Positions 1 to 19,249 of a stretch of 64,000 nt of DNA are shown in pieces. Position numbers and translations under genes: made by a program. How positions within the stretch are numbered: position 1 is the stretch's first letter; every line of letters starts with the position of its first letter. Origin of the DNA: Candidatus Multivorans sp. (GTDB taxonomy: Bacteria > Acidobacteriota > Thermoanaerobaculia > Multivoradales > Multivoraceae). A model generated the notes under the pieces. It ran no database searches and was not told where the DNA came from. It saw only the letters and a program-made list of their open reading frames with translations. The stretch is from the NCBI GenBank assembly GCA_965222875.1, contig CBDCVC010000002.1, forward strand, positions 802,835-866,834, read 5' to 3'.

Positions 1-988
1 CCGCGAGGCGTTTGAACCGCACGTTCGTGGGAACGGCCCACCCCGACGCGTAGATCACGGTCTGCGGCGTGGCGCCCGCGCGATGGGGAATGGGGGCGAT
101 CCCCAGGTCGAGATCGCCTTCGGCGGCGTACGCCCTGAGGCGAGGCAGTTGCCAGTGCCCCGACGCCTGCATGGCCTGGAGGCCCACGAAGAAGCGACCG
201 ACGGTCATCGGGTCGGCATCGCGCTGGTACTGAAACGGCGGCACCACCTCCCACTCCGTCACCAACGACGTGAGGAACTCGAACGCCTCGACGGTCTCCT
301 CCGAATCCAAATATCCCACCGTGCGGCGTCCATCCGGATCCATGATGTCGGCACCGGCCGACCACACCCAGGGTATCCATTCGTACAACTGTCGCGGGAA
401 GTTGATGCCGTAGACGTCGGTGCGTCCGTCGCCGTCGACGTCGCGCGTGAGTCGTCGCGCCACGGCGAGAAACTCCTCCCACGTCCACCCACGTTGGTCC
501 GGCTCCGCGATGGCTCGCTCGGCGAAGAGGCGGCGGTTGTAGTACACCACCATCGGCGTGAATCCCTTGGGAAACGCAAAGAGCCGATCGCCGTTCGCGA
601 ACACGTCGAGCACCTGGGGGAACACCGCATCGGGGTCGTACCCCACCCGTGCCGCATACGGCGCGAGGTCGAGCACCAACCCCCGGTCGACGAACGCGGG
701 AATATCGGACACGTCCAAGAGAAACACATCCGGCGGGGTTCCCGCCGCGATCGACGTGATGAGTTTCTCGCCGTAGTTGGTGACAATCGACTCTACGATG
801 ACCTGCACCCCCGGACGGCTCGCCGCAAACCGATCGGCGATACGCTGCTCCATCTCGATCTCGAGGTCGGCCGCCCAATTCATGACCCGGAGCGTGACGC
901 CGGATTCGTCACTGCCGGCGTGGCACCCCGTGCCCGCAACCACGGCCACGGCCCATGCCAACCGTCGCGCAGCTCCGTACGACTTCAT
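1..988 (-). CDS. ABC transporter extracellular solute-binding lipoprotein, sugar-type; 3' end runs off the window
   Basis: The minus strand translated by hand from ATG at 988 gives MKSYGAARRLAWAVAVVAGTGCHAGSDESGVTLRVMNWAADLEIEMEQRIADRFAASRPGVQVIVESIVTNYGEKLITSIAAGTPPDVFLLDVSDIPAFVDRGLVLDL... It has a lipobox (VAGTGC) and a family-1 SBP-like composition. Its start overlaps the stop of the upstream ATPase gene by 4 nt. It is absent from the supplied ORF track because it has no stop inside the window. Confidence 0.7.
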   Translation of the reverse strand, partial: MKSYGAARRLAWAVAVVAGTGCHAGSDESGVTLRVMNWAADLEIEMEQRIADRFAASRPGVQVIVESIVTNYGEKLITSIAAGTPPDVFLLDVSDIPAFVDRGLVLDLAPYAARVGYDPDAVFPQVLDVFANGDRLFAFPKGFTPMVVYYNRRLFAERAIAEPDQRGWTWEEFLAVARRLTRDVDGDGRTDVYGINFPRQLYEWIPWVWSAGADIMDPDGRRTVGYLDSEETVEAFEFLTSLVTEWEVVPPFQYQRDADPMTVGRFFVGLQAMQASGHWQLPRLRAYAAEGDLDLGIAPIPHRAGATPQTVIYASGWAVPTNVRFKRLA

Positions 989-2073
989 GACCCCTCCTCT
1001 CCCGCCGGCGCGAGTCGCGCACCGTCAGCGCCGGCGAAGAGGTGAAGCCAGCGCCGGTCCAGGCGGACACCGATCGTGTCCCCGGGAACACACGACACAT
1101 CGGGATCGACGCGAGCAACCCAGGGCCCTCCCTGGGGACCGCCGAAGTGCACAAGGACCTCGCTCCCCAGCGGTTCCAACCGGGCCACCGTCGTGCGGAA
1201 GTCCACGTTCTCGCCATCCGTCACGAGCCTCACGGCCTCGGGGCGAACGCCCAGCGTGGCGACGCCGGCATACTCCACCAACGGCAGGTCGAGCTCCAAG
1301 TCAGTTGTGCGAAACCGGCTGGCTGAGTCTTCGGCGGTGACGTCGCCACCGACGGTATTGATCGGAGGCATCCCGATGAATCCCGCCACGAAGAGATTCG
1401 CCGGACGCCGGTAGACGTCGAGGGGCGGCGCGTACTGCTGCAATCGTCCGTCGCGCATCACCGCGATGCGATGCCCCAGGGTCATGGCCTCGACCTGATC
1501 GTGCGTGACGAACACCATCGTCGTGCCGAGCTTTTGGTGGAGGCCGGCGATCTCGGTTCGCATCTCGAGGCGAAGGCGGGCGTCGAGATTGGAGAGGGGC
1601 TCGTCGAACAGAAACACGCGAGGTTCGCGCACGAGCGCCCGCCCCAACGCCACTCGCTGTCGCTGGCCGCCCGACAGCTCGCCCGGTCTCCGGTCGAGTA
1701 GCTCCTCGACGCCCAACACCGACGCCGCCCACTCCACCTTTTCACGCGCCTCCGCCGGCTGCGTCCGCCGCATGCGGAGCCCGAAGGCGAGATTGTCGTG
1801 GACGGTCATGTGGGGATAGAGCGCGTAGTTCTGGAACACCATCGCGACGTCGCGCGCGGCGGGTTCCACCTCGTTGACGACGCGACCGTCGATCCGCACC
1901 TCGCCGGCCGTTGGCTCTTCGAGGCCGGCGATCAACCGCAACGCCGTGGTTTTGCCACACCCCGACGGTCCAAGCAACACCACGAACTCTCCTCGATCGA
2001 CCTTCAGATCGAGGGGGCGGAGCGCGGCAACCGACCCGTATCGTTTCTCCAGACCAACGAGTTCGAGGCTCAT
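985..2073 (-). CDS. ABC transporter ATP-binding protein, MalK/UgpC-type
   Basis: Walker A GPSGCGKTT, Q-loop, signature LSGGQRQRVALGRAL, Walker B LFDEPLSNLDA, H-loop VTHDQ, and a C-terminal MalK-like regulatory domain. The probable start is the internal ATG giving MSLELVGLEKRYG at 2073, rather than the ORF-track start at 2130. Confidence 0.9.
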   Translation of the reverse strand: MSLELVGLEKRYGSVAALRPLDLKVDRGEFVVLLGPSGCGKTTALRLIAGLEEPTAGEVRIDGRVVNEVEPAARDVAMVFQNYALYPHMTVHDNLAFGLRMRRTQPAEAREKVEWAASVLGVEELLDRRPGELSGGQRQRVALGRALVREPRVFLFDEPLSNLDARLRLEMRTEIAGLHQKLGTTMVFVTHDQVEAMTLGHRIAVMRDGRLQQYAPPLDVYRRPANLFVAGFIGMPPINTVGGDVTAEDSASRFRTTDLELDLPLVEYAGVATLGVRPEAVRLVTDGENVDFRTTVARLEPLGSEVLVHFGGPQGGPWVARVDPDVSCVPGDTIGVRLDRRWLHLFAGADGARLAPAGEEGS

Positions 2074-2074
2074 C

Positions 2075-4306
2075 TCACGTATAACCGATCTCGACCGGCG
2101 TCCCGACCTCGGTCTCGTACCGGTCGCCATCGACCGTAGCGGTCACGCGCGAGCCCTTCCGCATCACGGTGACATCGTGACCTCGGACCACCGCGTGCTC
2201 GACCGTTACGTCGTCCAACTCCAACGTCAACGGATCGATTGCGATGCCATCCCGCCCAGGCACGATACCGGCGACGCCGCGGAGCAGGAGGTCGAGCACC
2301 CAACTGTGTTGGTAGTCGTCGATGCCGCGGTAGACCGACGCCTGACCGGTAAACGGATTGTAATGCTCGAAGCAGTTGGGCCGGTGGACGTCGCCATTGT
2401 CGAACATCATCTCCACAAACCGCACCAGCAATCGGCCGGCCACCGGACCAACCGCTCGACGACCGCGGCGCCATTGCCGCAACAAGCCGTCGATGACGTG
2501 GCTGTTGACCATCGGCCACACGCGCCCGTTCCACGGACAGTTGTGCCGCTTTCCCTTCCATAACGGTTGGCCGGCGAAATAGGCGTCATCGAGACTGGAC
2601 GACGGTATGGGATACGGCGATCCGAACTCCTCCGGATTCTCGAGGTGCGCCACCAGCGCGCGCACGTGCTCTTCTCCGACGAGATCGGTGAGCAGCGGAT
2701 AGAAACCCACGGCGGCCTTGGCGCCAGTGCGACGCATCGTACGGGGATCGACGTCGAAGAAGAAGCCGCACTCGTCGTCCCACAGATGCTCGAGGATCGC
2801 CGCGCCGATGCGATCCGCTGCTCCACGCCATTCCGCTGACTCGTCCCCCTTGCAGAGCCGGTCGGCCATCACCGCCAGCGTCTGCTTCAGTTGATACGTG
2901 TAGACGGTGACGTCCACGCCCTTCAGTCGCAAGCCTGATTCCCGACCGTCCATATCGGCACGGTCGTCCACCGCCTGGTATCGCGCCATGTACTCCTGGC
3001 CCGTCTCGTACTGGTTCACGACGTCGTACAGACATGAGGCTTCCCGATCTCGCGTCGTGTCCAACCATCGCGCATAACGCGACAGACCGCCATACGCCGT
3101 CTCCAAGAACTCCTCGTCATCGTGTACCGCATCCACCGCCAGCACAGCATCGCCCCAGTCGGCGTGATAGAAGTCCGTGTCTTCGAGGTGGTTGGTGTAC
3201 AGACGGCCGTGCAACGATCCATCCTGGCGTTGTGCGTCCAGGAAATTCAGCAGGGTGCCGTGGGCCACATCCGGCGTTCGGCTCCACCGCATCTCCCGCA
3301 TGTGACACTGGCCGCTGTACGTAATCGGAACGTGGAAATAGCCGATCCCTTCGGCGATCGCGGGGTGCCGTACGTTGCCCGCGTCGCCGTCCAGTCGGTT
3401 GAGCCGCAAACCGAACACACGGTAATCGTAGTATCGCGTCAGGTGCTGATTGGAACAGGTGAACCGAGGAAACCCGTCAAAGAACTCTACCCACGGTGAC
3501 CGCGGATCTCGATTGCCCTGAGCTGCCACCCGACCTTTCCGCGTCTCCGGCTCCAGCCGCAGCGCGAACGACACCTCACCGGCATCGGCCAGCGGAACGT
3601 CCAGCGCCACGTACACGACATCTCGCGTTTCCACACCGCCGAGGCATACCTCGCCAGCAAGCCCCGGCGGCGATTGCTCGCGCCACTCCTCCCAGAACGG
3701 GGTCAGACGCCACAGCGGATGCATGGCACTCGGCTCCGACCGGCGCGCCGACACGAGTGCCGCGGTTCCGGCGCCCGCCGCGGCGATCGTCGCCTGCACC
3801 TGTAACGGGTGCTCGTGCCGATCGATGAGCGTGCGGCCCCACGTCAGCACGTCGCGCGCGTCGTCGCGGCGCAGGTTTTGCACGGTCTCCCACGGTTGGA
3901 CGGAAAACGCTACGAGGTGCCAGTCGCGGAGTGACGACGGCCACTCCGTAGCACCCGCGGGTTCCCAATGCGACACGAACTCACCCCCCGGCAACGCAAA
4001 CCGACGCTCGATCAACTCGGCTCGCTGCGCGCGCCACTGCACGGTCAACCCATCTGGTCGCCAATCGAGCGGCCCACGCTCCAGGGCCGCCGCCTCTCCC
4101 GTAGGACCGACCAACGCGACGGTGAACAACGGCGCGAAGGGGTGATAGTAGACGAGCGCCTCATCCCAAAACCCCGGATGGCTTAGCCATTGGGGAAACG
4201 GCGGCGCCCACACGATACCGTCCCCGCACGAGAGGTACCACTTATCGCTCCGCGCGAGAGCGTCGAGTCGATCGCCGGTAGTGGGCGCCGTGACGCCCGC
4301 GGTCAT
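2075..4306 (-). CDS. Large alpha/alpha6 (six-hairpin) glycoside hydrolase, GH63/GH133 amylo-alpha-1,6-glucosidase-like
   Basis: 743 aa rich in W/Y/D/E (e.g. FYHADWGDAVLAV, NCPWNGRVWPMVNSHVIDGLL), typical of six-hairpin glycosidases. Its stop abuts the ATPase start, in line with a sugar-uptake operon. The family assignment is by resemblance only. Confidence 0.5.
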   Translation of the reverse strand: MTAGVTAPTTGDRLDALARSDKWYLSCGDGIVWAPPFPQWLSHPGFWDEALVYYHPFAPLFTVALVGPTGEAAALERGPLDWRPDGLTVQWRAQRAELIERRFALPGGEFVSHWEPAGATEWPSSLRDWHLVAFSVQPWETVQNLRRDDARDVLTWGRTLIDRHEHPLQVQATIAAAGAGTAALVSARRSEPSAMHPLWRLTPFWEEWREQSPPGLAGEVCLGGVETRDVVYVALDVPLADAGEVSFALRLEPETRKGRVAAQGNRDPRSPWVEFFDGFPRFTCSNQHLTRYYDYRVFGLRLNRLDGDAGNVRHPAIAEGIGYFHVPITYSGQCHMREMRWSRTPDVAHGTLLNFLDAQRQDGSLHGRLYTNHLEDTDFYHADWGDAVLAVDAVHDDEEFLETAYGGLSRYARWLDTTRDREASCLYDVVNQYETGQEYMARYQAVDDRADMDGRESGLRLKGVDVTVYTYQLKQTLAVMADRLCKGDESAEWRGAADRIGAAILEHLWDDECGFFFDVDPRTMRRTGAKAAVGFYPLLTDLVGEEHVRALVAHLENPEEFGSPYPIPSSSLDDAYFAGQPLWKGKRHNCPWNGRVWPMVNSHVIDGLLRQWRRGRRAVGPVAGRLLVRFVEMMFDNGDVHRPNCFEHYNPFTGQASVYRGIDDYQHSWVLDLLLRGVAGIVPGRDGIAIDPLTLELDDVTVEHAVVRGHDVTVMRKGSRVTATVDGDRYETEVGTPVEIGYT

Positions 4307-4738
4307 CGTTCCACCAGACCGTACCCCTCACGCATGGCCCCGTCGTAGTCCCCAATCAACCGCCACCAATTGGTCAGCGGCCGGCCGCCGTACGACAGTG
4401 TGTGACCGGCGCCCGGAATGTTTTGGGTCCAGTATCGGAACCAGCCCAGGCTCGTGCACCCCCACCGCTCGCAATTCGTCCGCTGCGTGGCGCCCATGCG
4501 GTCGGGACGCCAATCTTCGCAATCGCTCTCGACGAACCGCTGATTCGCCCAGTCGTAGTCTCGCTCGCCGTTCGGCGGAATGTGCGACCACCCACACCGC
4601 GGACTCACGATACGGTGCGAGATGTCACTTCCCACGAATTTGCCCCAGAACAACAGATCGCTCCAGGCATCGTCGGGCGTCGAATCGCGCCCGTCCGCGG
4701 CATTCATCACTGCCTCCAGCTGGTGCATATGGTTTTCG
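4303..4738 (-). pseudogene. C-terminal fragment of a lipoprotein gene disrupted by an ISL3 insertion
   Basis: The ORF 4303..4764 takes its first 9 codons from the IS end and the duplicated target. Once the IS is removed it is in frame with 6087..6676. ATGA overlap with the GH gene start. Confidence 0.6.
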
Positions 4739-6078
4739 GGCGCTTCAGGGTTGTGTGTGGGCATGAAGTGACTCCGGCGCGAGGTCGAGTCCGCCGAGAT
4801 GGAAGTAGATGGCGAGCCGGAAGTGTGCTCGGTTTCGATAGCCGTGCGCTTTTCGCTTGATCTCCTGGATCTTCGCGTTGATGCCTTCGGCGCGGGCGTT
4901 GGAGATGCTGGACACAGCAGCGTTGATGACGCTATCCCAGTGGTTCTTGATCATCTTCGCCACCTGCTTGATCGGTTCCAGGCGGCTGCGGACGGCCCAG
5001 TTGTACCAGCGCTTCCACCGCCGCTCGGCCCAGCCGCGGCGCACGTAGCCCCACGAGGAGCGCGCCATCTCCTTGATCGCCCAGGCGCGGGCCACGCGAA
5101 GATGACTCGCGCGAAGAGCGGCGAAACGCCGCTGCTGCGAACCCGTCATTCCCCCACGCTTCATCAACCACAGGTAGCGGCTCCGCTTCAGACGCGAATC
5201 CCCTGCTTCGAGCAGCTCCCGCTGCTCAGCACGGCGAACCAGGTCCACGGCGTGGTTCAGGTGCGCGACGATGTGGAACCTGTCGTGCACGATGTCCGCA
5301 TCCGTGTACTCCGCCACCGAGGAGATGTAGGCCGGCCACATGTCCATCGCCACCTGCTCGATACCCGCGCAGCTTTGCTCTCCCAACTCCTCGAAGTAGC
5401 CGTCGATGGCCGACCGACCACGACCGTCGGCCACATGGGTCACCACCCCGCGTTCCAGATCGTTGACTACCGTCACGTACTCGTGGCGCTTCCGAAACGA
5501 CGTCTCGTCCACCCCGATCACCCGAGGCGGCTTCAGCTCCCGCCGTGACAGACCCCGTTCCACGGCCCGGCGCTGAATCCCCGCCGCCTGATCCCAACTC
5601 AGGCCCAGACGGCGCGCCACCGCATGCACGCTCGCCTCACGCAGCCACTCGATGGCCTCCGCCTCGAACAGCGCCGTGAACCGCGAACCCGAGTCCGCCC
5701 AAGGCACCTTCAACTGGCGAATGCCGTGCTCGACGCAACGCACCCGAGGCACCTCCGCGTGAACCCGAGTCTGGTGCTGCATCGTGTCCAAGTGACGCCA
5801 ACGGCGATGCCGCCTGTCGTACCCCGGACACGGCAAACCGCACTCCGGACAGCGCGTCTCTCCACGATGCTCGACGTGGATCTCCACCGTGCCGCCAACC
5901 ACCGGACCCCGGCGACGCGGATGGCGCTCCTCCATGCGAAGCACCACCTCCCGCACACGCCACGGCGGCTTGACCCCCAACAGCCTCTCGAACGTCTTGG
6001 CACTCTTCATCCCGCCAGTCTATGGCCGATCGGCAGCCTCTCTCCCAGCTCCATGCCCACACAACAGCCTGAAGACCC
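4739..6078. mobile_element. ISL3-family insertion sequence, about 1340 bp, with an 8-bp target-site duplication
   Basis: Imperfect terminal inverted repeats: left 4739-4765 GGCGCTTCAGGGTTGTGTGTGGGCATG and right 6053-6078 CATGCCCACACAACAGCCTGAAGACCC (the reverse complement aligns with a few mismatches). A direct 8-bp duplication GGTTTTCG lies at 4731-4738 and 6079-6086, the TSD size expected for ISL3. Confidence 0.85.
4745..6010 (-). CDS. ISL3-family transposase (IS204/IS1001/IS1096/IS1165 type)
   Basis: 421 aa with an N-terminal Cys-rich zinc-finger region ([23 protein letters not shown]) and the conserved ISL3 DDE core (VIGVDETSF..., [24 protein letters not shown]). It lies between the IRs. 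Confidence 0.9.
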
Positions 6079-6086
6079 GGTTTTCG

Positions 6087-6676
6087 ATCGCTTCCGACAG
6101 ACCGCGCTGGTAGTTGTAATGGTACACCGTATAGGTACGGCTGGTCACCGGCAGGTCGAGGGTATCGCGATCGCTGTTGCTCACGTCCCCCCAGGGACCG
6201 GCCATGTTGGACTCCCACAGGTCGATGACGCCGCCGTGATAGCCCCAGATCCACACTTCCTTCACGCCCTCGTCCTCAACCCAGCCGGCGATGTCATGAG
6301 CGGCCGCGATCGCGCCATAGTCCGTCATCGGCACGTCGTGCCCGGGTTTGTCAAAGGTGGGCAGGGGTTCGAGCCGTTCCTCCGTGTGGACCACTTGGTA
6401 GCGCAGGCTGGGAGGTGCGGCCGAGTCGACATAGGCGCGATACCGCGATCCGTCCTCGAGCGCCACGACGAGCGCCGCGGTGAGAGAATCCGTCTTCCGG
6501 CGCGTGTCGGCGATGGACTCACCCCAGTCGCCGGTGACCGATCGATCGACCACGTCACCGTCGCTCGTGGGGAGATAGCGAACCACCACCACCGGGATCT
6601 CCCACGGCGGTCCGCTCGGGCGGTCTTGGTCGGGCGCCGCCGTGCAAGCCGCGAAGAGCATGGTGCACCCCACCAC
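6087..6676 (-). pseudogene. N-terminal fragment of the IS-disrupted lipoprotein gene
   Basis: Starts MVGCTMLFAACTAAPDQ... (signal/lipobox-like). The ORF runs through the TSD into the IS and stops at 6020. It is in frame with 4303..4738 after excision of 4739-6086. Confidence 0.6.
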
Positions 6677-7154
6677 CCGGAGGGCATCGTGCGAGCCGGG
6701 GCGGCGGAGTTGCGGACGATCGGCCTGACGTTGTGACGACAGAAGAAGACTCGCGACGGGGACGGGGCTACGTTACCCGGTGCAGAGTGGAGCCCGCAAC
6801 TCGTCTGACATTCCCCTTCATCTATCCAGCTCTCTTAACATGGCGTCCGCTCCCTTTCACCACGGGTGGAGCCAGGGTGTGCCCCTACACCTGAGGTGAA
6901 TCCCTACGAAGGAAGGAAGTAGAGCCTGAACCTCCAATCGGAACAGGAACTGCGCCGCACACGGCACGCGGCCGGCCGTTTACTGCTCTCCTCTAGCAGC
7001 CCGTGGTAGAAGTCCGTGTCGCACCGAGAGCGGTCAGGCGCCCGTCCGGCAAGGCGCGACGAGGGAGCATATCGGGCCATATTCGACCGAGGAGCAACGA
7101 TGGCGGGCGGGATGCATGGCCGCTCGAATGCAGCGCGACTTCTGCCACGGGCTG

Positions 7155-10100
7155 CTAGGTCGCGACCTTGGCTTCCGTATCACCAGCCGCCAGAGCATTC
7201 ATGTACGCCAGGATCAGGTTGTTGCTCCGGTAACCACCGAACTCCGCCTCGTCCTGCCGCCGGACGATCGGAAACGTTCCCATCACATACTCCGCATCCT
7301 CGCTGGACAGTCCGTAGAGCAGGAAGTACAGCGCGTCCAAACGGGCTCGCAGGTGCCGGCGCCCCTCCTCGTCCCAGGCGAACGGCGGTCCGTCGTACCC
7401 GAGGTCCTTGGCGAACGGCTCCATGTCGTGCGCCGTGTAGGTCAGACGGAGGACGTGATCGTGGACGATGTCCAGAGCAGTCTTGTTCCCGAACTGGCGC
7501 TCGTAGTCCCCGGCCGCGATGACCGGCAACTGCTCGACGATGAACCAGTTCAGATGCTGGCCTTGGACCTTCTGCCGGGCAACGAAGTCGAACACGAAGG
7601 AGTTTAGGTTGGCGGCGAGCAGCCACAGTGCCTCGGCGTCCGCCACAGTTGAGTCGGAGCCACTGGGCACAAGCAAGGGCAGCGTGTTACCTACGCCAGA
7701 GCGAGGCACGAGAGCCGCGATCATGGTGCGGACGTTCGTCGGCGCGGTAACGTCCTTGAAGGCGAGTGCCCAATCGAGACTCCCAGGCCAGTCCATGTCA
7801 TCGGCCGACACCCAGAACTGCGGAGCGGGCGACCAACTCGGATTGGCATGCTCCTCCAACGTCGCCTCTCGCGGCTGCGCCGGACGGTTCAGGTTCTCCG
7901 GGTTCAACACCACGCTCGCCGCTCGGTGGTCGAAAGCCTGGACCATCTTGCCTTCATACAGGGGCAGCCAGGCATCCTCACCTCGTTTCCATCTATTCCC
8001 AGCGACCGGATAGCAGCCGTCTGCTTCGAGTTCCGCAGCTGTCCGAAACAGGTGGGAGTCATTCGTCATGTGGAACATCGTCTTGTAGCGAACCGGCCAT
8101 GCGCGACGCTCACCACCGCTCGACCGGTCCACCAGCACCGGATGACGTTCGTAGATGCGCCTAGTGATCTCAGCGTCTCGCCGTGTGCGGAACACCGGCG
8201 CCGTGCCGGTGTTCGGATTGACCCGCGTGAAATCGGCCGGGCTCAGGGGGAAGCACCGTTCCGGGTCGCTCAGATCTCCTGCGCTATCCAGGAAGAACCC
8301 GCACGGAGTCTCCGCGAACGTCCGTTCGGCGCCGCCGAGAATCAGAGCGGAGAACTTGAAGCTCCGGTGGACATCCGGGAAGAACGGCGGCAGACCGGTC
8401 CCGAGCCGACGATTCTCGAAGTCGAACAAGCCCGCCACCCGGCCGCGGGTGGACATCGACTGGAAGAACGGCGCGGCCGTCTTGTCGGCGTAGATACCTG
8501 AAGGCACGAGCAGCCCCATCAGGCCGCCCGGCCTGAGCACGTTCAGCGTCCGCTCGACGAACAGCGAGTACAAGTTGATGTCGCCCCTGCCGAGCAACGG
8601 ATAGTCGCCTGAAGTCCGGAACAGCCTCAGGAGGCTGTCGGCGCGTTGCTTCGCTTCGTCGAACCCGGCGGCCAGCGGTTCGCCCCGGTCGCGGAGCTTC
8701 TTGATGCCCTTCCGCCGCAAAGCCGCGGTGGGAGCGCGGGCAAGCTCCGGGTCGCGGGTCCCGAACCACTCCACTTCCTGCAGTTTGATCCGGTCCCAGG
8801 GAGGATTGCCGATCACCGCATCGAACCCGCCCTCTGGGCTGCGCCGCTGCCAATGTCGCCAGACTCCCGGGAAGGCAACCTCCCAATGCAGGAAGGTCTC
8901 CCGTTCGGCCAGGGCGCGGGCATCGCGCCATAGCTCGACGAATCTCGAGAGGCCGGCGTCGTCCGAACTGGCCGATGTCGAATCGATGGCTCCCGGACCC
9001 TCTGCGAGGAGTGAATACGCCCTGGCCGGATAGGCGCCTATCACTTCGAGCAATCCACGCGTCTCGAACTCGTTGCGCTGCTTCTTCTTCATGCCCGCGG
9101 TCAGCCAGCGCAAGGCGCACAGGAAGTCGAGCACGCGGCGTAACTCGGAGGTCGCCTGGTCGACACCCTCGAAGAGCCTGGCCGACTCTCGCACCTCCGC
9201 CACGTCCGCGTCGGACATCTCCTCGATCAGCTCCATCCCGGCAACCGCGTTCTCGGCGCCCTGGATGGCGCTGGAAGCGATCAGCCCACCAAGGCGGCTG
9301 AGTTCGTCCGTTCCATCGCCGACCCTGAGTCCGACGAGAGAATCGCCGCACCGCAGATGATGATCCAGGAACGACAGCGGCGCACCGACGGTGAAGCTGT
9401 GCAGCCACAGCGACACCTTGGCCAGCTCCACCGTCAGGCGGTTCTTGTCCACGCCGTAGATACAGCGCTTGAGCACCATCCGCCGGATGATCGCCTGATC
9501 CGTGAGTTGCGCCTCGTCGATCACCCATTCCGACTCCGCGGCTCGCAGCAGGATGCCATGACGGATGGCCTCGATGCGCCGGACCAGTGGCGACTCGTAC
9601 GGCTCTTCCAGCCAGACCGGCACCGCCGGCACGTACTCGATGAGTTCCGCCACGAAGTCGGACAGGAAGTCCACGGCAGTGACCAGGAAGTGACCGCTTC
9701 CCATTGCCGGATCGAGCACCTTTAGACCCAGCACGGCCTCCGCCGGGTCAATCAGCGCCAACTCCGCCAAGCGCTCGTCCTTGGTCCTGCGGTCGCTCTT
9801 CAGTTCCTCGGCCTTCGCCTCGAAGGCGCGTAGCCGCTCTTCCGCCAGCGGCTTCAGCGACTGCTCGACGATCAGATCGACCAACTCCTGGGGCGTGTAG
9901 AAGCTGCCACTGTCCTTGCGGGCAAAGCGGTTGGGCCGGACCTTGACCGCGCCACTCGGCTCCCGAAAAGGCTCGCGCTCCAGGAGCCGCTCGTAGAGCG
10001 AACCAAGTTGTTGGACCGACATGTCACGGTAGTTGACGAACCGGGCCCGGCCATCGGCTCCTTCCCCTAGGTGGCTGAGTCCGAAGATGACCGGCGCGGT

Positions 10101-11225
10101 CTCGCTATCGGCCAGGCGAACCTTCGCCAGCAACGGCGCCGCCTCCTCAGCGAACAGGCCACCGTTGTAGGGCGGGAGTCCGATCGACGAATCGCCGCGG
10201 TCGATCTGCCGGAAGAGCTCCAGGAGACGGTTCCAATAGTTGGCCGCCGTGCTCGAGAGCGTGTCCCGCTCAGCCACTCTGCGAGCGATGTCGTCGCGCA
10301 CCCTCCCTCGCAGTCCGTAGTCGTCGTACCTCGAATCGTTCACCGGCAGCAGGCCGCGATCCTCGGCGTAGAGCACGAACAGCAGCCGGTAGAGAAAGAT
10401 CAGCGCAGCGTCCCGGATCTCGTGGAGATCGGCTGACGGCGCCTCTGCGGCCAACGCATTCAAGAGCCGGGGAAACGCATCGTCGAAAACGACCCTGGAC
10501 AGGTCCTCGGCAACCCTCTCCTCGTAGCGTTTCCCCTCCGCGATGGCCGAGTCGATGAAGGTCTCCGTGGCGCCGTCCTGCAGAGCGAAAGCACTGCGGC
10601 CGAACAGGAGAAAGAACGTTCTCAGACCGTCCTCGTCGCCCTGTTCCAACATCGCCCGAAGGTCCGCCTCGAAGTACCCACTCGCGCGGGGGCGAGCGCG
10701 ATGGTCGTAGAGCCGCCAGACACCGCCGTTCGTCAAGATGCCCCAACGGATTCGGCCATCCGAGACACTCTCGGCGGTGGCCAGATACCGGAGAATCTGC
10801 CCGTGTGGCGTACCCACATACAAGCGACCGGCACGGTCCCGGCCATCCAGAGGCAGACCGAACCGCTTGCTCTCCTGGACCAGGAGAGCGTCGGGATAGC
10901 GGTCGCCGGGAACGGCACGTTGGTTGGCGCGGGCCTTTGATTCGGCGTCTTCGAACAGCAGGTGGTCCGGGACGTCCTCGCCCCGCGCAGTCGCCTGCTG
11001 CGGCAGGTAGTGCGACCATCCGAGCAGCTCCAGGATGGGCCGGATCAGATCCGCCTCGGTGACCGCCTCATTCGGATCGCTGGAGCGGCTGAACGCCGCG
11101 AGGAGAGTGGGGACACCCGCCTGGAACTCGGCGAAGGTCTCCGGGTCACGGACCGACTCCCGCCACTCTGCCGTGTCCCGAATACCGTCGGTGAGGAAGT
11201 ACTGGGTGAAGAGTTGGCCAGGCAA
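7155..11225 (-). CDS. Single-polypeptide restriction-modification enzyme, type IIG/IIL (Eco57I/MmeI-like): N-terminal PD-ExK nuclease, gamma-class N6-adenine methyltransferase, and C-terminal target-recognition region
   Basis: 1356 aa. The N-terminal region has PD...E-S-K-like motifs (VPDHLLFEDAESK / YPDALLVQESKRFG). AdoMet motif I is VLDPAMGSGHFLV and catalytic motif IV is VIGNPPWDRIK, followed by INLYSLFVERTLNVLRPGGLMGLLVPSG. The roughly 450-aa C-terminal region is probably the TRD. No Walker-A helicase motifs are present, so it is not type ISP. No BREX or DISARM partner genes lie nearby. Confidence 0.7.
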   Translation of the reverse strand: MPGQLFTQYFLTDGIRDTAEWRESVRDPETFAEFQAGVPTLLAAFSRSSDPNEAVTEADLIRPILELLGWSHYLPQQATARGEDVPDHLLFEDAESKARANQRAVPGDRYPDALLVQESKRFGLPLDGRDRAGRLYVGTPHGQILRYLATAESVSDGRIRWGILTNGGVWRLYDHRARPRASGYFEADLRAMLEQGDEDGLRTFFLLFGRSAFALQDGATETFIDSAIAEGKRYEERVAEDLSRVVFDDAFPRLLNALAAEAPSADLHEIRDAALIFLYRLLFVLYAEDRGLLPVNDSRYDDYGLRGRVRDDIARRVAERDTLSSTAANYWNRLLELFRQIDRGDSSIGLPPYNGGLFAEEAAPLLAKVRLADSETAPVIFGLSHLGEGADGRARFVNYRDMSVQQLGSLYERLLEREPFREPSGAVKVRPNRFARKDSGSFYTPQELVDLIVEQSLKPLAEERLRAFEAKAEELKSDRRTKDERLAELALIDPAEAVLGLKVLDPAMGSGHFLVTAVDFLSDFVAELIEYVPAVPVWLEEPYESPLVRRIEAIRHGILLRAAESEWVIDEAQLTDQAIIRRMVLKRCIYGVDKNRLTVELAKVSLWLHSFTVGAPLSFLDHHLRCGDSLVGLRVGDGTDELSRLGGLIASSAIQGAENAVAGMELIEEMSDADVAEVRESARLFEGVDQATSELRRVLDFLCALRWLTAGMKKKQRNEFETRGLLEVIGAYPARAYSLLAEGPGAIDSTSASSDDAGLSRFVELWRDARALAERETFLHWEVAFPGVWRHWQRRSPEGGFDAVIGNPPWDRIKLQEVEWFGTRDPELARAPTAALRRKGIKKLRDRGEPLAAGFDEAKQRADSLLRLFRTSGDYPLLGRGDINLYSLFVERTLNVLRPGGLMGLLVPSGIYADKTAAPFFQSMSTRGRVAGLFDFENRRLGTGLPPFFPDVHRSFKFSALILGGAERTFAETPCGFFLDSAGDLSDPERCFPLSPADFTRVNPNTGTAPVFRTRRDAEITRRIYERHPVLVDRSSGGERRAWPVRYKTMFHMTNDSHLFRTAAELEADGCYPVAGNRWKRGEDAWLPLYEGKMVQAFDHRAASVVLNPENLNRPAQPREATLEEHANPSWSPAPQFWVSADDMDWPGSLDWALAFKDVTAPTNVRTMIAALVPRSGVGNTLPLLVPSGSDSTVADAEALWLLAANLNSFVFDFVARQKVQGQHLNWFIVEQLPVIAAGDYERQFGNKTALDIVHDHVLRLTYTAHDMEPFAKDLGYDGPPFAWDEEGRRHLRARLDALYFLLYGLSSEDAEYVMGTFPIVRRQDEAEFGGYRSNNLILAYMNALAAGDTEAKVAT

Positions 11226-11584
11226 GGTCGTCTCAATGGAGCATTGAAGGCGGGGGGCGACCGAAACGTCGCCGGGTTGGCGAAAACGAGAGCCTGGAGT
11301 CTAGGGCTTTGCGCGCCAGAAGCAAGCTCGCCGCCGGGTCGGCCAGGACGCCTACCGGTCCAACCCGGACGCCTTCCCCGTCGTGAGTCCGCGGTTCACC
11401 GGTTCCGATTGAGCGGGCCCGAGGAGGGTGCCAACGGGCCATCTGCACCGAGTTAATTTACTTGTGTTTATCGAGCACACGTGCTATATTACTTGGCCTC
11501 GTCGGAGGCCCAAGACGGCCGGTTTCACGGCCTCCGACACGCGCCAACCCGGACCGTCAGGTCCCAGCCTAGGGTGCCAACCAA

Positions 11585-13030
11585 ATGATTGACAAACAAA
11601 CCGGCATGAGCAGCAAGGAGCGCATGGGCGAGGAGATCGCGGCGCTCGCCGCGCGCATTGACGCGGCGACCTATGAGCTGCTCGTCCTGATCCGCAAGTT
11701 CGATGAAAAGGAAGGCTGGAACCGCGGCTTCCTCACTTGCGCCCACTGGCTCACCTGGCGGATCGGTCTGGCGCCCGGCGCGGCCCGTGAGCGGGTGCGA
11801 GTCGCCCGGGCTCTGGGCGACCTGCCCTTGATGAGTGCGGCAATGAGCAGGGGCGAGCTCTCCTACTCCAAGGTGAGGGCGCTCACCCGCATCGCCACGC
11901 CCGACACCGAGCAGTCGCTGGTGGACCTGGGCAAGACCGGAACCGCGGCGCAGGTCGAGCGAGTGGTGAGAAGCTGGCGAAGGATCGACCGCACGGTCGA
12001 GGCCTATGACGATGAGCTGCGCGACGCGTCGAGTCACGTGACGACCCACATCGACGAGAACGGCATGTTCGTGATCCGCGGATGTCTGGCGCCGGAGGCG
12101 GGCGAAGTGCTGATGAAGGCACTCGATGCGGCGGGCGACAGGCTCTATGCCGAGCAGCGGGAAGACAAACCACCGGTCGGCAAGATCCGCGCCGATGCGC
12201 TTGCCCTCGTGGCCGAGAGCGCGCTCAGGGCCGGTCTCGATCCGGGATCGAGCGGTGACCGCTACCTGGTCGTGGTTCATGCGAACGAGGCGGAGCTGAC
12301 GGCGCAGGAGAGCGCGACGGCTGACAGCCGGGCTCACGTTCCCGCGGGAACGTCCGGGGCTCGCGTTCCCACGGAAACGCGAGGGGACCGCGACACGGAT
12401 GCGGGCGAGACGCCGGCGTTGCCAGGAGTTGCCAACGGCGCCTGGCTCGGGACCGCCCATGTCCCCGTTTCCGCGGAAACAGCCCGGAGGATCGCCTGCG
12501 ACGCCGGCAGAGTCTCGATGGCCCACCGGAACGGCCAGATCCTGAGCGTTGGCCGCAAGACCCGCACGATTCCGCCGCCGATCCGCCGGGCCCTGGAGTT
12601 TCGCGACCAGGGTTGCCGCTTCCCCGGCTGCACATCGCAGCATTGCGACGCTCACCACATCGTCCACTGGGCCGACGGCGGCGAAACGAAGCTCTCGAAC
12701 CTCGTGCTTCTCTGCCGCCGGCACCACCGCCTGCTCCACGAAGGCGGCTTCACCGTGAAGATGAACGAGGAACGCGCCGTTCAGTTCCGCGACAAACGTG
12801 GTCGGCCGCTGGAGCGCAGCCCGGCGCCGCCACCAGTTGGCTCGTACCCTGCCCGCGAGCTGATCCGCCAGTTGGAGGACGCCGGCATCCTGATCACCGG
12901 CAAGGAGTCAATGCCGGCCTGGGACGGCACACCGATGGACCTGCCCTACGTGATGGAGTGCCTGTGGCGACCGCCGCCGCATCTCGAAGCAGCGGTTGCC
13001 CGGGAACGAAACACATCGCACGCCGCGTAG
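11585..13030 (+). CDS. DUF222 / HNH endonuclease-signature protein (REP13E12-like family)
   Basis: 481 aa with an N-terminal DUF222-like region and a C-terminal HNH region with Cys/His ligands (GCRFPGCTSQHCDAHHIVHWADGGETKLSNLVLLCRRHHRLLHEGG). Confidence 0.8.
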   Translation: MIDKQTGMSSKERMGEEIAALAARIDAATYELLVLIRKFDEKEGWNRGFLTCAHWLTWRIGLAPGAARERVRVARALGDLPLMSAAMSRGELSYSKVRALTRIATPDTEQSLVDLGKTGTAAQVERVVRSWRRIDRTVEAYDDELRDASSHVTTHIDENGMFVIRGCLAPEAGEVLMKALDAAGDRLYAEQREDKPPVGKIRADALALVAESALRAGLDPGSSGDRYLVVVHANEAELTAQESATADSRAHVPAGTSGARVPTETRGDRDTDAGETPALPGVANGAWLGTAHVPVSAETARRIACDAGRVSMAHRNGQILSVGRKTRTIPPPIRRALEFRDQGCRFPGCTSQHCDAHHIVHWADGGETKLSNLVLLCRRHHRLLHEGGFTVKMNEERAVQFRDKRGRPLERSPAPPPVGSYPARELIRQLEDAGILITGKESMPAWDGTPMDLPYVMECLWRPPPHLEAAVARERNTSHAA

Positions 13031-13047
13031 AGGCCAAGGTCCGGCAT

Positions 13048-13115: not shown

Positions 13116-13541
13116 ATGCCAACCCCAACACCCGAAACCGACGCGATCGTCGCGACGCTGCGGTCCGAACTCCACGCCGAGCCGGACATCATCGCCGCCT
13201 ACCTCTACGGGTCCGTCGCCCGCGGCACTCAGCGCCGCGACAGCGATGTCGATGTAGGCCTCCTGCTCGAATCGGATCCTCCGGACACACTCGAGAGCCG
13301 CCGCCTGGACCTCGCCGCCCACATCGAGGAAAGGACGGGGCGACCAGCACAGATCGTCATCCTCAATCGAGCCCCGTGCGACCTCGCCCACCGGGTTCGC
13401 CGAGACGGCAAACTGCTGATCGACCGCGCCCCACGAAGCCTGGTCGCTGGCAGAACTCGCCGACCGCTTTCTCGTTCTGCGCGACGGCGAGATCCGGGAA
13501 CTCGATTCGCTGCCCGGAACGGGCGCAACCTGGAGGACACC
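13116..13541 (+). CDS. Minimal nucleotidyltransferase (MNT, Pol-beta superfamily; candidate orphan antitoxin-type NTase); the frame has no stop and runs on into the downstream VOC gene
   Basis: The GS-x9-10-DxD signature is LYGSVARGTQRRDSDVDVGLL, and the MNT core is complete by about aa 105. The same frame continues without a stop to 13973 through the VOC start codon. Confidence 0.6.
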
Positions 13542-13545
13542 ATGA
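13420..13545 (+). pseudogene. Relic of the 3' end of an ABC-transporter ATPase gene
   Basis: Frame +2 reads STAPHEAWSLAELADRFLVLRDGEIRELDSLPGTGATWRTP*. ADRxxVLRDGxI is the canonical C-terminal ABC ATPase motif. There is no start codon. The stop TGA overlaps the VOC ATG (ATGA). Confidence 0.5.
13483..13510 (+). repeat. Direct repeat copy 2 (GACGGCGAGATCCGGGAACTCGATTCGC)
   Basis: Pairs with 13048-13076. It lies inside the ABC-ATPase relic frame (DGEIRELDSL). Confidence 0.7.
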
Positions 13546-13973
13546 AGAATCCACCTGAAGGCTGGCCGAGAATCTCGTCCGCCCTCTTCTACGATGACGC
13601 GGCGGCCGCGATCGACTGGCTGACCCGGGCGTTCGGATTCGCGGTGCAGGAGCGGGTCGAGGACGAGCAGGGGAGAATCGTCCATTCGCAGCTCGTCCTG
13701 GACGGCGGTCTCATCATGGTCGGACAGACGGATCTGCAACCCGACCGGGCGTACCAGCAGTCTCCACAGGCGGTCGCCGGCGCGAACACGCAGTCGCTGG
13801 CCGTGTACGTCGACGACGCCGACGCGCACTGCGAGCGGGCGCGGGCGGCCGGCGCCGCGATCACGATCGAGCCCGCGACTCAGGACTACGGCGAGAGCTA
13901 CTGGGTCGACCGGAGCTACGGCGCCCGGGACCTTGAGGGACACTATTGGTGGTTCCTCCAGCGCCTGCGCTGA
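13542..13973 (+). CDS. VOC family protein (glyoxalase/bleomycin-resistance fold)
   Basis: RBS GGAGGACACC precedes the ATG. MKNPPEGWPRISSALFYDDAAAAIDWLTRAFGF...GESYWVDRSYGARDLEGHYWWF is the typical VOC/PhnB-like pattern. Confidence 0.75.
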   Translation: MKNPPEGWPRISSALFYDDAAAAIDWLTRAFGFAVQERVEDEQGRIVHSQLVLDGGLIMVGQTDLQPDRAYQQSPQAVAGANTQSLAVYVDDADAHCERARAAGAAITIEPATQDYGESYWVDRSYGARDLEGHYWWFLQRLR

Positions 13974-13982
13974 CGGCGCCCC

Positions 13983-14693
13983 TCACTCCCCATCCACCCC
14001 CTCGTTCAGGATCTTCAGGTACTCGCTGTAGACGTACGCCCGGTTCCGGCTGAAGCCGGTGATCTCCCGGACGAGGCCTGCGCGTTCCAGGAGTCTCAGC
14101 GCAGCCGAGACGGTCGGGAACGCGAGTCCGGTGCGCTTGCAGGTTTCCGGGATGGAGAGGATTGGACGTTCCTGTAGGGCTTCGTGGACCCGTAGTGCGG
14201 AGCCGGCGCGCCGGCCCTCCGTCGCGAGACGTTGCCGGTCGGCCGTGAATCGCTCGGTGAGGCGACCCACAGTGGCGGCGGCGTTCTCGGCCGTCTCCTG
14301 CACGCCTTGGAGGAAGAACGCCAGCCAAGCCTCCCAATCGCCGGTGTGCCGAACACGGTCGAGCAGCTCGTAGTAGCGCTCTCGATGGCGCTTGAAGTAC
14401 ACGCTGAGGTAGAGCAGCGGTTGGCGCAGTAGGCCCGCCTCGCACAGCAACAGCGTGATCAGCAGACGGCCGACGCGGCCGTTGCCGTCGAGAAACGGGT
14501 GAATCGTCTCGAACTGGACGTGAGCCAGACCAGCACGCATCAACGCCGGCAGGCCGTCGTCCTTCGCGTGCAGAAAGCCCTCGAGTTCGCCCATGCAATC
14601 GGGCACGGCGAGGTGCGGCGGCGGCACGAAGACTGCGTTGCCCGGGCGTACGGGGAACAGCAGACCCTGTTCGGCAGGTTCAGCCTTACAGCG
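13983..14693 (-). pseudogene. Fic/Doc family protein, 5'-truncated (N-terminal about 150 aa missing)
   Basis: Fic motif HPFLDGNGRVGR. The frame is open upstream only to a TGA at 14694-14696; it reads ...GNAVFVPPPHLAVPDCMGELEGFLH..., matching the Fic region just before the motif, but the expected N-terminal helices are absent. The first possible start is GTG at 14627. Confidence 0.7.
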
Positions 14694-15711: not shown

Positions 15712-15775
15712 GGCCATGTGCAGGAACTTTGAATACTTCTCGTTTACGCCTTAGTTGCGCTATGATGCTCTCTTC
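15712..15775 (+). promoter_or_regulatory. AT-rich spacer upstream of imuA with promoter-like hexamers
   Basis: The local GC drop reads GGAACTTTGAATACTTCTCGTTTACGCCTTAGTTGCGCTATGATGCTC, with a TATGAT -10-like hexamer. No canonical SOS box was recognised. Confidence 0.3.
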
Positions 15776-16694
15776 CCACTTCCCGTTTCTCTCGTTCCGC
15801 TTCGACGCCGTGACTTCCCTGCCCGCAGCTCTCACCGACGCGCAGTGGCCGCGGGCACTCGTGCGCCAGCTCCGGCGCGGGCGGGAGCTGGTGGGCAATG
15901 GTCCCGCAATCGGAATCCAGGAGACGGACGCCGATCTGTTCGCCACGCGGCTTCGCGGTGTCGACCTGTTGCTCGGCGGCGGGATCTGCCGCGGGCAGAC
16001 GGTCGAGTTGGTCGGCCACCGAAGCAGCGGTCGCTTCTCCCTGGTGCTGGAGCTCCTGGCCGGCGCCACCCAGAGCGGTGAATCGGCGGCGCTGGTCGAC
16101 CTGGGAGATCACTTCGATCCACAGGCGGCGGCGCGCGCCGGGGTCGTCCTCGAACGGCTGCTCTGGGCGCGGCCCCAGCGATTGAAGCAAGCGCTGGGCA
16201 GTGCCGAAGTGCTGATCGGCGGCGGCTTCCCCCTGGTCGCGATCGACCTCGGACTGCCTCCGGTGCCCGGCGGCCGCGGCAAGGAGTCCGCGTGGTTGCG
16301 GCTGCGGCGGGCGGCGCTGGATCACCAGGCGGCGCTGCTGATCGCCAGCCCGTACCGCGCCGGCGGTACGGCGCCGCAGAAGATTCTCGAACTGGGTTCC
16401 CGCGCGTCGCCGGTCCGGAATGCGGGCGAGACGCCCGCGTTCCCAGGGGGCGAGACGCCGCCGGTTCGCGCTCTCTGGGCGCAGGCCGCGCCGAGAAGCC
16501 CGCGGTTGCTCGACGGGCTCGCGACCCGCCTGGAACTCGCCAAGTCGCGCGGCGCACGGCCGGGCGCCGCGACCGATGTCGAACTGCGCGTTCGCACCAG
16601 CAGCCTGCGGCGCCCCCTGCCCGGCACGCCGTCCCGACCTGCGAAGAACAGCTCCGCCGGCTCGCCCGCCGAGGTGCTGAGACGTGCCGGCTAA
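15762..16694 (+). CDS. imuA: ImuA-like RecA-fold protein of the imuA-imuB-dnaE2 mutagenesis cassette (start uncertain)
   Basis: The pattern TRLRGVDLLLGGGICRGQTVELVGHRSSGRFSLVLELLAGA...AALVDLGDHFDPQAAARAGVVLERLLWARP...LIGGGFPLVAIDLG is typical of ImuA/SulA-like proteins. It lies immediately upstream of, and overlaps, imuB. The ORF-track start is 15729; GTG at 15806 is an alternative start. Confidence 0.6.
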   Translation: MMLSSHFPFLSFRFDAVTSLPAALTDAQWPRALVRQLRRGRELVGNGPAIGIQETDADLFATRLRGVDLLLGGGICRGQTVELVGHRSSGRFSLVLELLAGATQSGESAALVDLGDHFDPQAAARAGVVLERLLWARPQRLKQALGSAEVLIGGGFPLVAIDLGLPPVPGGRGKESAWLRLRRAALDHQAALLIASPYRAGGTAPQKILELGSRASPVRNAGETPAFPGGETPPVRALWAQAAPRSPRLLDGLATRLELAKSRGARPGAATDVELRVRTSSLRRPLPGTPSRPAKNSSAGSPAEVLRRAG

Positions 16695-16716
16695 ACGCAA
16701 CTCCCGGATCGCCTGC

Positions 16717-18237
16717 ATGCGGGCGGCGTTGTTTCCGCTCGCGGCCTACTTGCGGGGGGCGCCGGAGCTGGCCCGCGAGGCGGTCGTGGTCCACGAAGGC
16801 CCCTCGGCGCGGATCGTCGCCGCCTCCCGGCTGGCGCGACGCGCGGGTGTGCGGCCGGGGCTGACCGTGGCGCAGGCCCGGAACATCGAGTCCGGCCTCG
16901 CCTCTCGCGTCCGCGACCCGGAGCGCGAACACACCGCGCAGGAGGTGCTGCTCGAGATCGCCGGCGCCTTCTCACCCCGGGTCGAGGACGGCGGTGAGGG
17001 CATGGTCTACCTCGACATCGCGGCCGACGACGAGCACAACCTCGGCCAGACGATGATGCGGGACATGGATGCCGCCGGCCTGCCCGGGCGGGTCGGCATC
17101 GCCGGCTGCAAGCTCGCGGCGCGGGCCGCGGCCGCCCTGCCGCGGTCGCCGAACGTCGTGGCGCCACGCGGCGAAGCCCGGTTCCTGGCGCCGTTGCCGC
17201 TCAACTCTCTGCTCGGGAGCGGCGGCAGCGGTCCCGGCAGCGACGCGGCGGACGGCGACGACCAGGAAATCCTCCACACGCTGAAGCTCTGGGGCCTGCG
17301 CACCGTCGGCGATCTGGCCGGCCTGCCGGCGGGCGAGATCCACAGCCGTCTCGGCGAGCACGGCACAGCGCTCCATGCCGCCGCCCGAGGCGTCGATCCG
17401 GCGCCGCTCACTCCCCGTCCGCCGCCGCCCACCTTCCGCGAGTCGCAGACTCTGGAATGGCCAATCGACAACCTGGAACCGTTCCTGTTCGTCGCCCGCG
17501 CCGCGGTCGAACGCCTTGTCACCCGGCTCGAAGCCCGGGGCATGGGCTGCAAGCGGCTCGAACTGTCGCTCAAGCTCGAACCCGAGGGCCTTCACGAGCT
17601 GGCGATCGAACTGCCGGCGCCCACACGCGAGGCCCGGACGTTGCTGTCGCTCGTCCACCTCCACCTGGAGGGAGAGCCGCCCCGGGCACCGATTGTCGGC
17701 ATGCAGCTTTCGGCTCACCCCGATGCCCCGCGCCAGGCCCAACTCAGCCTGCTCGGTCCGGCCGCCCTGTCGCCAGATCGCCTGGCCGCCGTCACCGCCC
17801 GGCTGCTCGCCCTGCTCGGCCCAAACCGGGTCGGCTCGCCGCGCACCAGAAACGGCCATCTGCCGGAACGCTTCCGGCTCGCCGACTACGACCCGCCCCC
17901 GCCGCCCCGCATCCGGCTCGAACCCCGGCCGGGCCGCGGCATGCTGGCGGTGCGCACCTTGCGGCCCCCGGTCGAGGTCGAGGTGCTGACGGCCGAAGGT
18001 TCCACTCTCTGCCCCGCACCGGTGCAGATCAACCCCCTGCCGACCGACGAACGCCACGTCCGCATCGAGGGCGCGGTCCGGACCGCCGCCGGCCCCTGGG
18101 AGATCGAAGAGGGCTGGTGGCGGGAGGCCCCTGCGCTGCGGGACTACTGGGACGTGGAACTGCGGAACGGCGCGGTGTGCCGGATCTACCGTGACCGGAC
18201 GTCGGAGCGCTGGTTCGCGGATGGGGTGTACGACTGA
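16717..18237 (+). CDS. imuB: ImuB, an inactive Y-family polymerase-like protein
   Basis: The N-terminus MRAALFPLAAYLR fits the ImuB pattern. It has a Y-family fold-like composition without the catalytic acidic triad context. It is adjacent to imuA, with dnaE2 downstream. Confidence 0.7.
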   Translation: MRAALFPLAAYLRGAPELAREAVVVHEGPSARIVAASRLARRAGVRPGLTVAQARNIESGLASRVRDPEREHTAQEVLLEIAGAFSPRVEDGGEGMVYLDIAADDEHNLGQTMMRDMDAAGLPGRVGIAGCKLAARAAAALPRSPNVVAPRGEARFLAPLPLNSLLGSGGSGPGSDAADGDDQEILHTLKLWGLRTVGDLAGLPAGEIHSRLGEHGTALHAAARGVDPAPLTPRPPPPTFRESQTLEWPIDNLEPFLFVARAAVERLVTRLEARGMGCKRLELSLKLEPEGLHELAIELPAPTREARTLLSLVHLHLEGEPPRAPIVGMQLSAHPDAPRQAQLSLLGPAALSPDRLAAVTARLLALLGPNRVGSPRTRNGHLPERFRLADYDPPPPPRIRLEPRPGRGMLAVRTLRPPVEVEVLTAEGSTLCPAPVQINPLPTDERHVRIEGAVRTAAGPWEIEEGWWREAPALRDYWDVELRNGAVCRIYRDRTSERWFADGVYD

Positions 18238-18355
18238 GGGGGTCCACATGGACTCGAGACCTACAGATTCCAGATGGCTGCCATCGGCCCACTTATAGAG
18301 TTCTGCCCGGCTTTTATCGATTCTCGCTATAAACGGCCGACAGGAGAAGAACAGC

Positions 18356-18790: not shown

Positions 18791-18806
18791 TCCGAACGCG
18801 CCGGCC

Positions 18807-19196: not shown

Positions 19197-19249
19197 GGCG
19201 CCGATGATTCCATGACCGGCGCGGAGCTCCAGCGATAGTCTGCGATGCC

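Follow-up and report, generated by a model that had tools for sequence, protein, structure and literature searches.

The present analysis concerns a stretch of 64,000 nucleotides from Candidatus Multivorans sp. (assembly GCA_965222875.1, contig CBDCVC010000002.1, positions 802,835 to 866,834), in the following called the window, and within it one large gene whose product joins a nuclease, a DNA methyltransferase and a putative DNA-recognition region in a single chain. Positions refer to the window, and residue numbers (amino acids, aa) to this protein. The gene is composed of the following parts.

7155..11225, minus strand: whole gene of a 1356-aa fused nuclease-methyltransferase-recognition enzyme, stop codon at 7155-7157
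10536..11225, minus strand: N-terminal PD-(D/E)xK nuclease domain (aa 1-230)
10965-10967, minus strand: catalytic D87 (in PDHLLF)
10866-10874, minus strand: catalytic E118-S-K120 (in QESK)
Q143...Y147 of the protein: QxxxY motif of the nuclease
9936..10535, minus strand: helical spacer domain (aa 231-430)
9276..9935, minus strand: N-part of the methyltransferase (aa 431-650) with motif X GSFYTP (440-445), motif I DPAMGSGHF (505-513) and YGVDKN (590-595)
8856..9275, minus strand: insertion between motifs I and IV (aa 651-790), ending in the family hallmark FLHWEVAFPGVW
8346..8855, minus strand: catalytic part of the methyltransferase (aa 791-960) with FDAVIGNPPW (801-810) and LYSLFVER...GGLMGLLVPSG (885-910)
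7806..8345, minus strand: conserved C-terminal scaffold 1 (aa 961-1140), including NPNTGTAPVFR, MFHMTNDS and LPLYEGKMVQAFDHRAA
7491..7805, minus strand: exchangeable cassette, candidate for the specificity-determining part of the recognition domain (aa 1141-1245)
7158..7490, minus strand: conserved C-terminal scaffold 2 (aa 1246-1356)

The gene is real and intact, and not a chance open reading frame (ORF). It is a single uninterrupted ORF that starts with TTG and runs over 1356 codons, and its GC content per codon position (0.68/0.46/0.81) is the coding pattern for DNA of 65% GC. The N-terminus, MPGQLFT, is identical in close homologs. More than 5,000 database proteins match the enzyme at E<=1e-10; identity is 68% or higher in each of the best 120 matches, of which 118 are full-length proteins (about 1,345 aa), with a uniformly high identity across these 118 close homologs.

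An earlier note on this DNA had described a nuclease, a methyltransferase and a recognition region fused in one chain, and had proposed a Pfam profile search as a check. In this search Eco57I matches well above its cutoff (66 bits versus 25.3, E 6e-18), and N6_Mtase is matched as well. MmeI_hel (20 bits) and MmeI_Mtase (19 bits) both stay under the 27-bit cutoff, and MmeI_N, MmeI_TRD and MmeI_C are not matched at all, which places the protein outside the MmeI family (type IIL). Among the PADLOC models, which come without curated cutoffs, the best match is DrmMI (PDLC02643, 8e-84), and type IIG models match at 8e-67 and 2e-58. Two of the latter, PDLC03613 and PDLC03620, match the N-terminal, the central and the C-terminal fragment of the protein, and for the C-terminal fragment type IIG models are the only ones matched. 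No NCBIfam model reaches its cutoff, and no solved structure or characterised member of the enzyme family was found. The sequence features expected of type IIG are present: nuclease and methylase share one chain, the catalytic triad is intact, motifs X, I and IV are in place, and there is neither a conserved partner gene nor an ATPase domain. The fused design is thus borne out by the Eco57I match, by the type IIG models that cover the protein from end to end, and by the fold of its N-terminal domain.

For this N-terminal part a structure prediction had also been suggested. The AlphaFold2 (AF2) model, with a predicted local distance difference test score (pLDDT) of 83, adopts a PD-(D/E)xK fold similar to the type I HsdR nuclease, and the catalytic residues are intact. 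D87, E118, K120 and the QxxxY motif are invariant in a 68-sequence alignment. In an alignment of 60 diverse full-length relatives, which was used for the triad comparison, triad and QxxxY are retained in about 43. Both sequence strings that had been offered as alternative nuclease motifs are present, and the true triad joins the two. The nuclease is separated from the methylase by a helical spacer of 200 residues, of the kind seen in type IIG enzymes and HsdM.

The methyltransferase motifs follow each other in the order X, I, IV (NPPW), which is that of a gamma-class N6-methyladenine (m6A) methyltransferase, and they are intact; GSFYTP, DPAMGSGHF and NPPW were all found as previously described. 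D505, G509, S510 and F513 of motif I are invariant in the 60 diverse relatives, as is NPPW at 807-810 (60 out of 60). The spacing from D505 to N807 was measured as 302 residues, which agrees well with the earlier estimate of about 300; for CamA, the HMMER alignment gives a spacing of about 110. The insertion that makes up this difference (about 190 extra residues) is family-wide, and its region, aa 651-790, is among the less conserved segments of the enzyme. An inserted helical domain had been suggested here; the insertion as such stands, while its helices are predicted at low confidence only. PDB sequence searches with the single sequence and with a profile of close homologs gave zero matches. 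A profile of diverse relatives gave weak matches to the core methylases of CamA, RM.BsaXI, PglX/BrxX and MmeI, all within aa 431-650.

In comparison with the Eco57I-like type IIG enzymes DrdV (7lo5, 1016 residues) and BpuSI (3s1s, 870 residues), the window enzyme is about 330-480 residues longer. It differs from these two by the insertion of roughly 190 residues between motifs I and IV, and from the solved type IIG enzymes in general by a C-terminal module of about 400 residues, for which neither detectable sequence similarity nor a Pfam model exists. With the MmeI family (type IIL; 5hr4) it shares the domain order, the single chain and the helical spacer between nuclease and methylase, and methylation of one strand, as in that family, would likewise be expected here.

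The C-terminal region of about 450 residues had been proposed as the target-recognition domain. Its general role as a recognition region is upheld in our reading, but most of it is conserved scaffold and only about 105 residues appear to be swappable. With residues 941-1356 as query, 6,295 cluster representatives were matched, and for 1,563 of these the match reached E<=1e-30. The stretch 1001-1100 belongs to the best-conserved blocks of the whole enzyme (identity 0.79-0.86 in the 118 close homologs), which is unlike a diversifying recognition domain, and scaffold 2 reaches a mean pairwise identity of 0.80.

A different picture was obtained for the segment between the two scaffolds. Two alleles, L004 and L007, share 90-100% of their residues with the window protein in most blocks, but their identity falls to 0.38 at 1151-1200 and to about 0.60-0.66 at 1201-1250; in a third, L008, it falls to 0.36-0.40 at 1101-1200. 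The low-identity block can still be aligned: scaffold motifs are retained, and the residues between them have been swapped out. In a comparison of 8,128 pairs, the correlation with core identity is only 0.23 for the segment 1141-1245, against 0.57-0.92 for the other segments. Among the 259 pairs with a core identity of at least 0.90, 38% lie under 0.6 in 1141-1245, and 0% do so in any other segment. At least eight types of this segment can be distinguished. From this pattern we infer that only residues of about 1141-1245 act as an exchangeable recognition cassette, which would be replaced by recombination. Neither a silent copy of the cassette nor an inverted repeat for it is present within the window. 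This rules out local phase-variable shuffling and points to exchange between genomes instead of local inversion, which has been described for some relatives of the enzyme. Paralogs within one genome were also tried for locating the specificity region and were set aside because the three pairs disagree; the comparison of alleles from close strains worked instead.

The enzyme gene stands alone, at a variable island between an imuA-imuB-dnaE2 cassette and a sugar-uptake cluster. Among its neighbours within 10 kb there is no helicase, ATPase partner, PLD, BrxC or PglZ. The same holds for drmA, drmB, drmC and drmD, which are also not found in operon-like form elsewhere in the window. This confirms the earlier statement that partner genes of BREX, DISARM or helicase type are missing. 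Flank clustering of 76 related loci, drawn from one-genome-per-species data, likewise found no DISARM genes. No flanking gene family occurs in more than 11 of the 76 loci, and those that recur are of a generic kind (MNT/HepT, SDR, ABC, Fic). The largest clusters of the upstream flank are confined to relatives from Acidobacteriota, and three homolog contexts with Pfam annotation have zero neighbours in common.

The best PADLOC match of the enzyme calls for a comparison with the methylases of DISARM and ARMADA. In 17 of the 60 diverse relatives the triad positions read ISH...IHL and QxxxY is missing, while NPPW and the C-terminal module are retained. The gene contexts of four among these 17 were inspected; one contig is too short to be of use, which leaves three informative contexts. 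In all three, the methylase gene directly follows an SNF2 gene (about 940-990 aa), itself preceded by a gene for a protein of about 1,740-1,800 aa, for which DEAD-helicase and MZB/DUF1998 Pfam matches are recorded in two cases. The best PADLOC labels of these partners are DruE and DpdE, ahead of DrmA and DrmD. The published ARMADA array (ArmC, ArmA, ArmB) is related to DISARM (PMC13463889), and the architecture seen here fits its description at least as well as canonical DISARM. DrmMI of DISARM class 1 and ArmB of ARMADA are homologous to the window protein over nearly the full length. The homology extends to the helical spacer, the motif I-IV insertion and the C-terminal module, of which scaffold 1 is common to the helicase-operon relatives. 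With one such methylase, P0232, the window protein shares 32% identity over aa 139-1346 (E 1e-159). The relatives in helicase-SNF2 operons are without the PD...ExK triad and QxxxY, whereas the window protein has both and no such partners. A resemblance of DrmMI-type genes to type II/IIG enzymes has been noted before (PMC7365801, PMC9881135), so the kinship itself is not new. Judged by these alignments, the window enzyme is a nuclease-keeping, autonomous cousin of the DISARM and ARMADA methylases. The triad is kept here and lost in the helicase-operon relatives, which answers the question of a degenerate orphan in favour of type IIG.

Taking these observations together, we consider it probable, at roughly 80%, that the gene encodes an autonomous single-polypeptide restriction-modification enzyme of a type IIG-like (Eco57I-like) kind. 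Its mode of action can be sketched by analogy with type IIG enzymes and with DrmMI of Serratia, which methylates one strand of the non-palindromic site ACACAG to m6A (bioRxiv 10.1101/2021.12.28.474362); the latter is cited as a member of the wider DrmMI class. The C-terminal module would read a short asymmetric DNA site, and the cassette 1141-1245 would set which one. The methyltransferase, using S-adenosylmethionine, would place m6A on one strand of the sites in the host DNA, and the same protein would cut unmethylated foreign DNA at a fixed distance given by the helical spacer. For cleavage, more than one bound molecule or site would probably be required, as with MmeI and DrdV, and no translocation along the DNA is envisaged.

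Several points weigh against this reading. Activity, recognition site and position of the cut are predictions throughout. Pfam finds no domain in the C-terminal fragments of eight diverse members, none of the three PDB sequence searches (single sequence, close-homolog profile, diverse profile) returned a relative of the C-terminal module, and AF2 modelled residues 430-1356 too poorly (mean pLDDT 51) for a fold search. The label of DNA recognition thus rests on position, exchange pattern and analogy. Divergence of the cassette could stem from causes other than specificity switching, and one pair of paralogs within a genome, P0006/P0007, hardly differs in the cassette, contrary to the expectation for diversified specificities. 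A scan for sigma-70-type consensus sites found no promoter-like site for the gene, and terminator-like matches are no commoner than expected by chance. Finally, the enzyme copies of three relatives, L047, L058 and L079, are frameshifted, so the gene can decay.

Some of these points are shared by an alternative which we regard as unlikely, and which survives best among those considered: the gene is full length but no longer restricts, being silenced or reduced to methylation, and persists as a selfish horizontal element or an epigenetic methylase. Besides the frameshifted relatives and the result of the promoter scan, it can draw on the island with its insertion sequence (IS) and toxin-antitoxin debris, and on the distribution of the family, which suggests recent spread. 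Full-length relatives of 59-70% identity occur in metagenome-assembled genomes titled with at least eight phyla-level names (Chloroflexota, Latescibacterota, Nitrospirales and Binatia, and further Spirochaetia, Fidelibacterota, Flavobacteriales and Terriglobia). Many bin names (SB06xx, COS, RHO, Plut) are presumably those of sponge or coral microbiomes, in which case the family would have spread within one habitat; a literature search on the habitat of the source clade gave no result. Relatives of about 48-50% identity are found in Alphaproteobacteria, including plasmids, where they are annotated as 'restriction endonuclease' or 'Eco57I ... domain-containing protein'. Phage records give weak partial matches only, and viral contigs do not exceed 52% identity. 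The strong conservation of the whole length, including the nuclease triad, counts against a loss of restriction, since a role in methylation only would not preserve the triad. The promoter scan, covering sigma-70-type sites only, says little for the host organism.

Less probable still is an orphan methylase of the DrmMI/ArmB type, left over from a degraded DISARM or ARMADA system, which would methylate only and carry a non-catalytic nuclease-like domain. The top PADLOC rank of DrmMI, the similarity to P0232 and the decayed island with deletions and IS elements around the gene would fit this view. The operon relatives, however, show ISH...IHL, and the window protein and all its close homologs keep D87, E118, K120 and QxxxY. 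Moreover, no DrmA-, DrmB-, DrmC- or DrmD-like gene adjoins the enzyme gene in the window or in any of the 76 loci, and the C-terminal fragment is matched by type IIG models alone.

We see hardly any room for a BREX PglX-like methylase without its system. The BREX PglX models (NCBIfam) reach 13-31 bits against cutoffs of 400-900, no brxC or pglZ gene was found within the window, and the conserved-triad nuclease domain sets the enzyme apart from PglX (8c45, 9ewz). To our knowledge, PglX has no PD-(D/E)xK nuclease domain. Of the two options left by the earlier note, type IIG enzyme or degenerate PglX-like orphan, the first prevails on the invariant triad, the low BREX scores and the placement of the triad-lost kin in operons. 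A type ISP-like enzyme, which would move along the DNA before it cuts, can practically be dismissed: the likeness of the nuclease domain to type I HsdR and its QxxxY motif would fit, but where type ISP enzymes (LlaGI/LlaBIII-like) have a helicase-like motor between nuclease and methylase, the window enzyme has its 200-residue helical spacer at 231-430, and Pfam detects no helicase or ATPase domain.

The autonomous type IIG-like enzyme is surrounded by the following features.

985-2130: ABC ATPase, full length (ABC_tran and TOBE), in the sugar-uptake cluster
4739..6078, minus strand: ISL3-family insertion sequence with transposase Pfam matches
11585..13030, plus strand: DUF222-HNH gene (Pfam DUF222 and HNH), divergent from the enzyme gene
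13116-13973, plus strand: fusion of MNT and VOC/glyoxalase in a 285-aa ORF, junction near 13438/13526
13983-14627, minus strand: truncated SoFic-like Fic gene without the first approximately 150 residues
14702-15706, plus strand: radical SAM/DUF3641 gene, in place of the DNA which in the related locus L001 contains the N-terminus of Fic
15729-25492: mutagenesis cassette of imuA-like gene (RecA fold), imuB (IMS) and dnaE2, with a TPR gene between imuB and dnaE2
43536-45053: DDE_Tnp_1 transposase, adjoining a 1036-aa ORF
46859-49882, minus strand: SNF2 helicase, 1007 aa, best PADLOC matches DpdE and ZorD

The annotation supports the view of a variable island with remains of defence genes and mobile elements, and the IS-split gene, the DUF222-HNH gene and the truncated Fic listed in the earlier note were all recovered beside the enzyme. 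The ISL3 element has inverted repeats at 4743-4768 and 6049-6074 and an 8-bp target duplication, GGTTTTCG, at 4731-4738 and 6079-6086; its insertion is recent. It splits the downstream gene into two pieces (6087-6676 and 4303-4738), whose reading frame is restored once the IS is removed. The split gene encodes about 330-370 aa and is uninterrupted in the 99%-identical strain L058. As a partner of the enzyme it was rejected: its product looks secreted, has no Pfam match, and differs from that of the downstream gene in L001. A DUF222-HNH gene adjoining the enzyme gene is seen only in Acidobacteriota relatives. Both the ISL3 element and the DUF222-HNH gene are context and not functional partners. 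An orphan MNT gene and a VOC gene had been listed separately; both domains are present, but they are fused in one ORF by a deletion of about 4.5 kb, which in comparison with L001 has removed HepT, an Rce1-like gene, a methyltransferase, an HNH gene and a DDE_3 transposase. The supposed ABC-gene relic turned out to be a full-length ABC ATPase, located in the sugar-uptake cluster together with a substrate-binding protein and a glycoside hydrolase. The SNF2 gene was considered as a possible DrmD and set aside, as it lies 36 kb from the enzyme among housekeeping genes (leuA-like, gcvP, gdh); it is probably RapA-like and no part of a defence system. In addition, we observed at 40076-43186 on the minus strand the 1036-aa ORF next to the transposase, which has a coding-type GC content at third codon positions and no Pfam or PADLOC match.

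The flanks of the enzyme locus match Candidatus Multivorans (Acidobacteriota, Thermoanaerobaculia) at about 99%. In strain L058 they are 98.6-99.9% identical to the window (1-4746, 6079-6997), in contrast to only 87% for the block of enzyme and DUF222-HNH gene (7179-13037), which marks this locus as a hot spot of allelic replacement. The frameshift in the L058 enzyme copy lies near residue 960, and downstream the strain carries an extra 3 kb with a 574-aa ORF.

A peculiar situation was found at the 3' end of the gene in other members of the family. In 15 of 80 related loci (L060, L011, L015, L031, L032, L034, L040, L045, L052, L054, L061, L063, L066, L068 and L077), the intact gene is accompanied, at a distance of 0.5-8 kb, by one to four additional copies on the same strand, each limited to the last 45-150 codons of the enzyme gene. 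In L060 (13909-18981) the final 141 nucleotides occur five times, once as the gene's own end and in four copies of 68-84% identity. The copies separate cassettes of 1.0-1.7 kb, which contain two MNT-HepT pairs, a PIN-like gene and an ORF of no assigned family. The arrangement is reminiscent of an integron-like array or of serial insertions at the 3' end of the gene; no integrase was seen at these arrays, and the window itself contains no 3'-end fragments of the enzyme gene.

Together with the cassette data, this leads to a wider idea about the family, which is tentative and which we would sooner doubt than accept. The family might represent a naturally modular recognition scaffold, in which exchange of the cassette 1141-1245 between genomes reprograms specificity within a frame common to stand-alone enzymes and DISARM/ARMADA methylases, and the 3' end of the gene might serve in some lineages as a landing site for toxin-antitoxin arrays.

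For practical work, the mapped cassette offers a concrete target for specificity swaps, as they have been done with MmeI. In all contexts examined, stand-alone enzymes and helicase-operon methylases could be told apart by presence or absence of PD...ExK and QxxxY, and this rule could help annotators of defence systems, who now give both labels. For Candidatus Multivorans, and thus for a member of the Acidobacteriota, the annotation of the locus can be settled, at the confidence given above, as an intact and autonomous restriction-modification gene of the type IIG kind.

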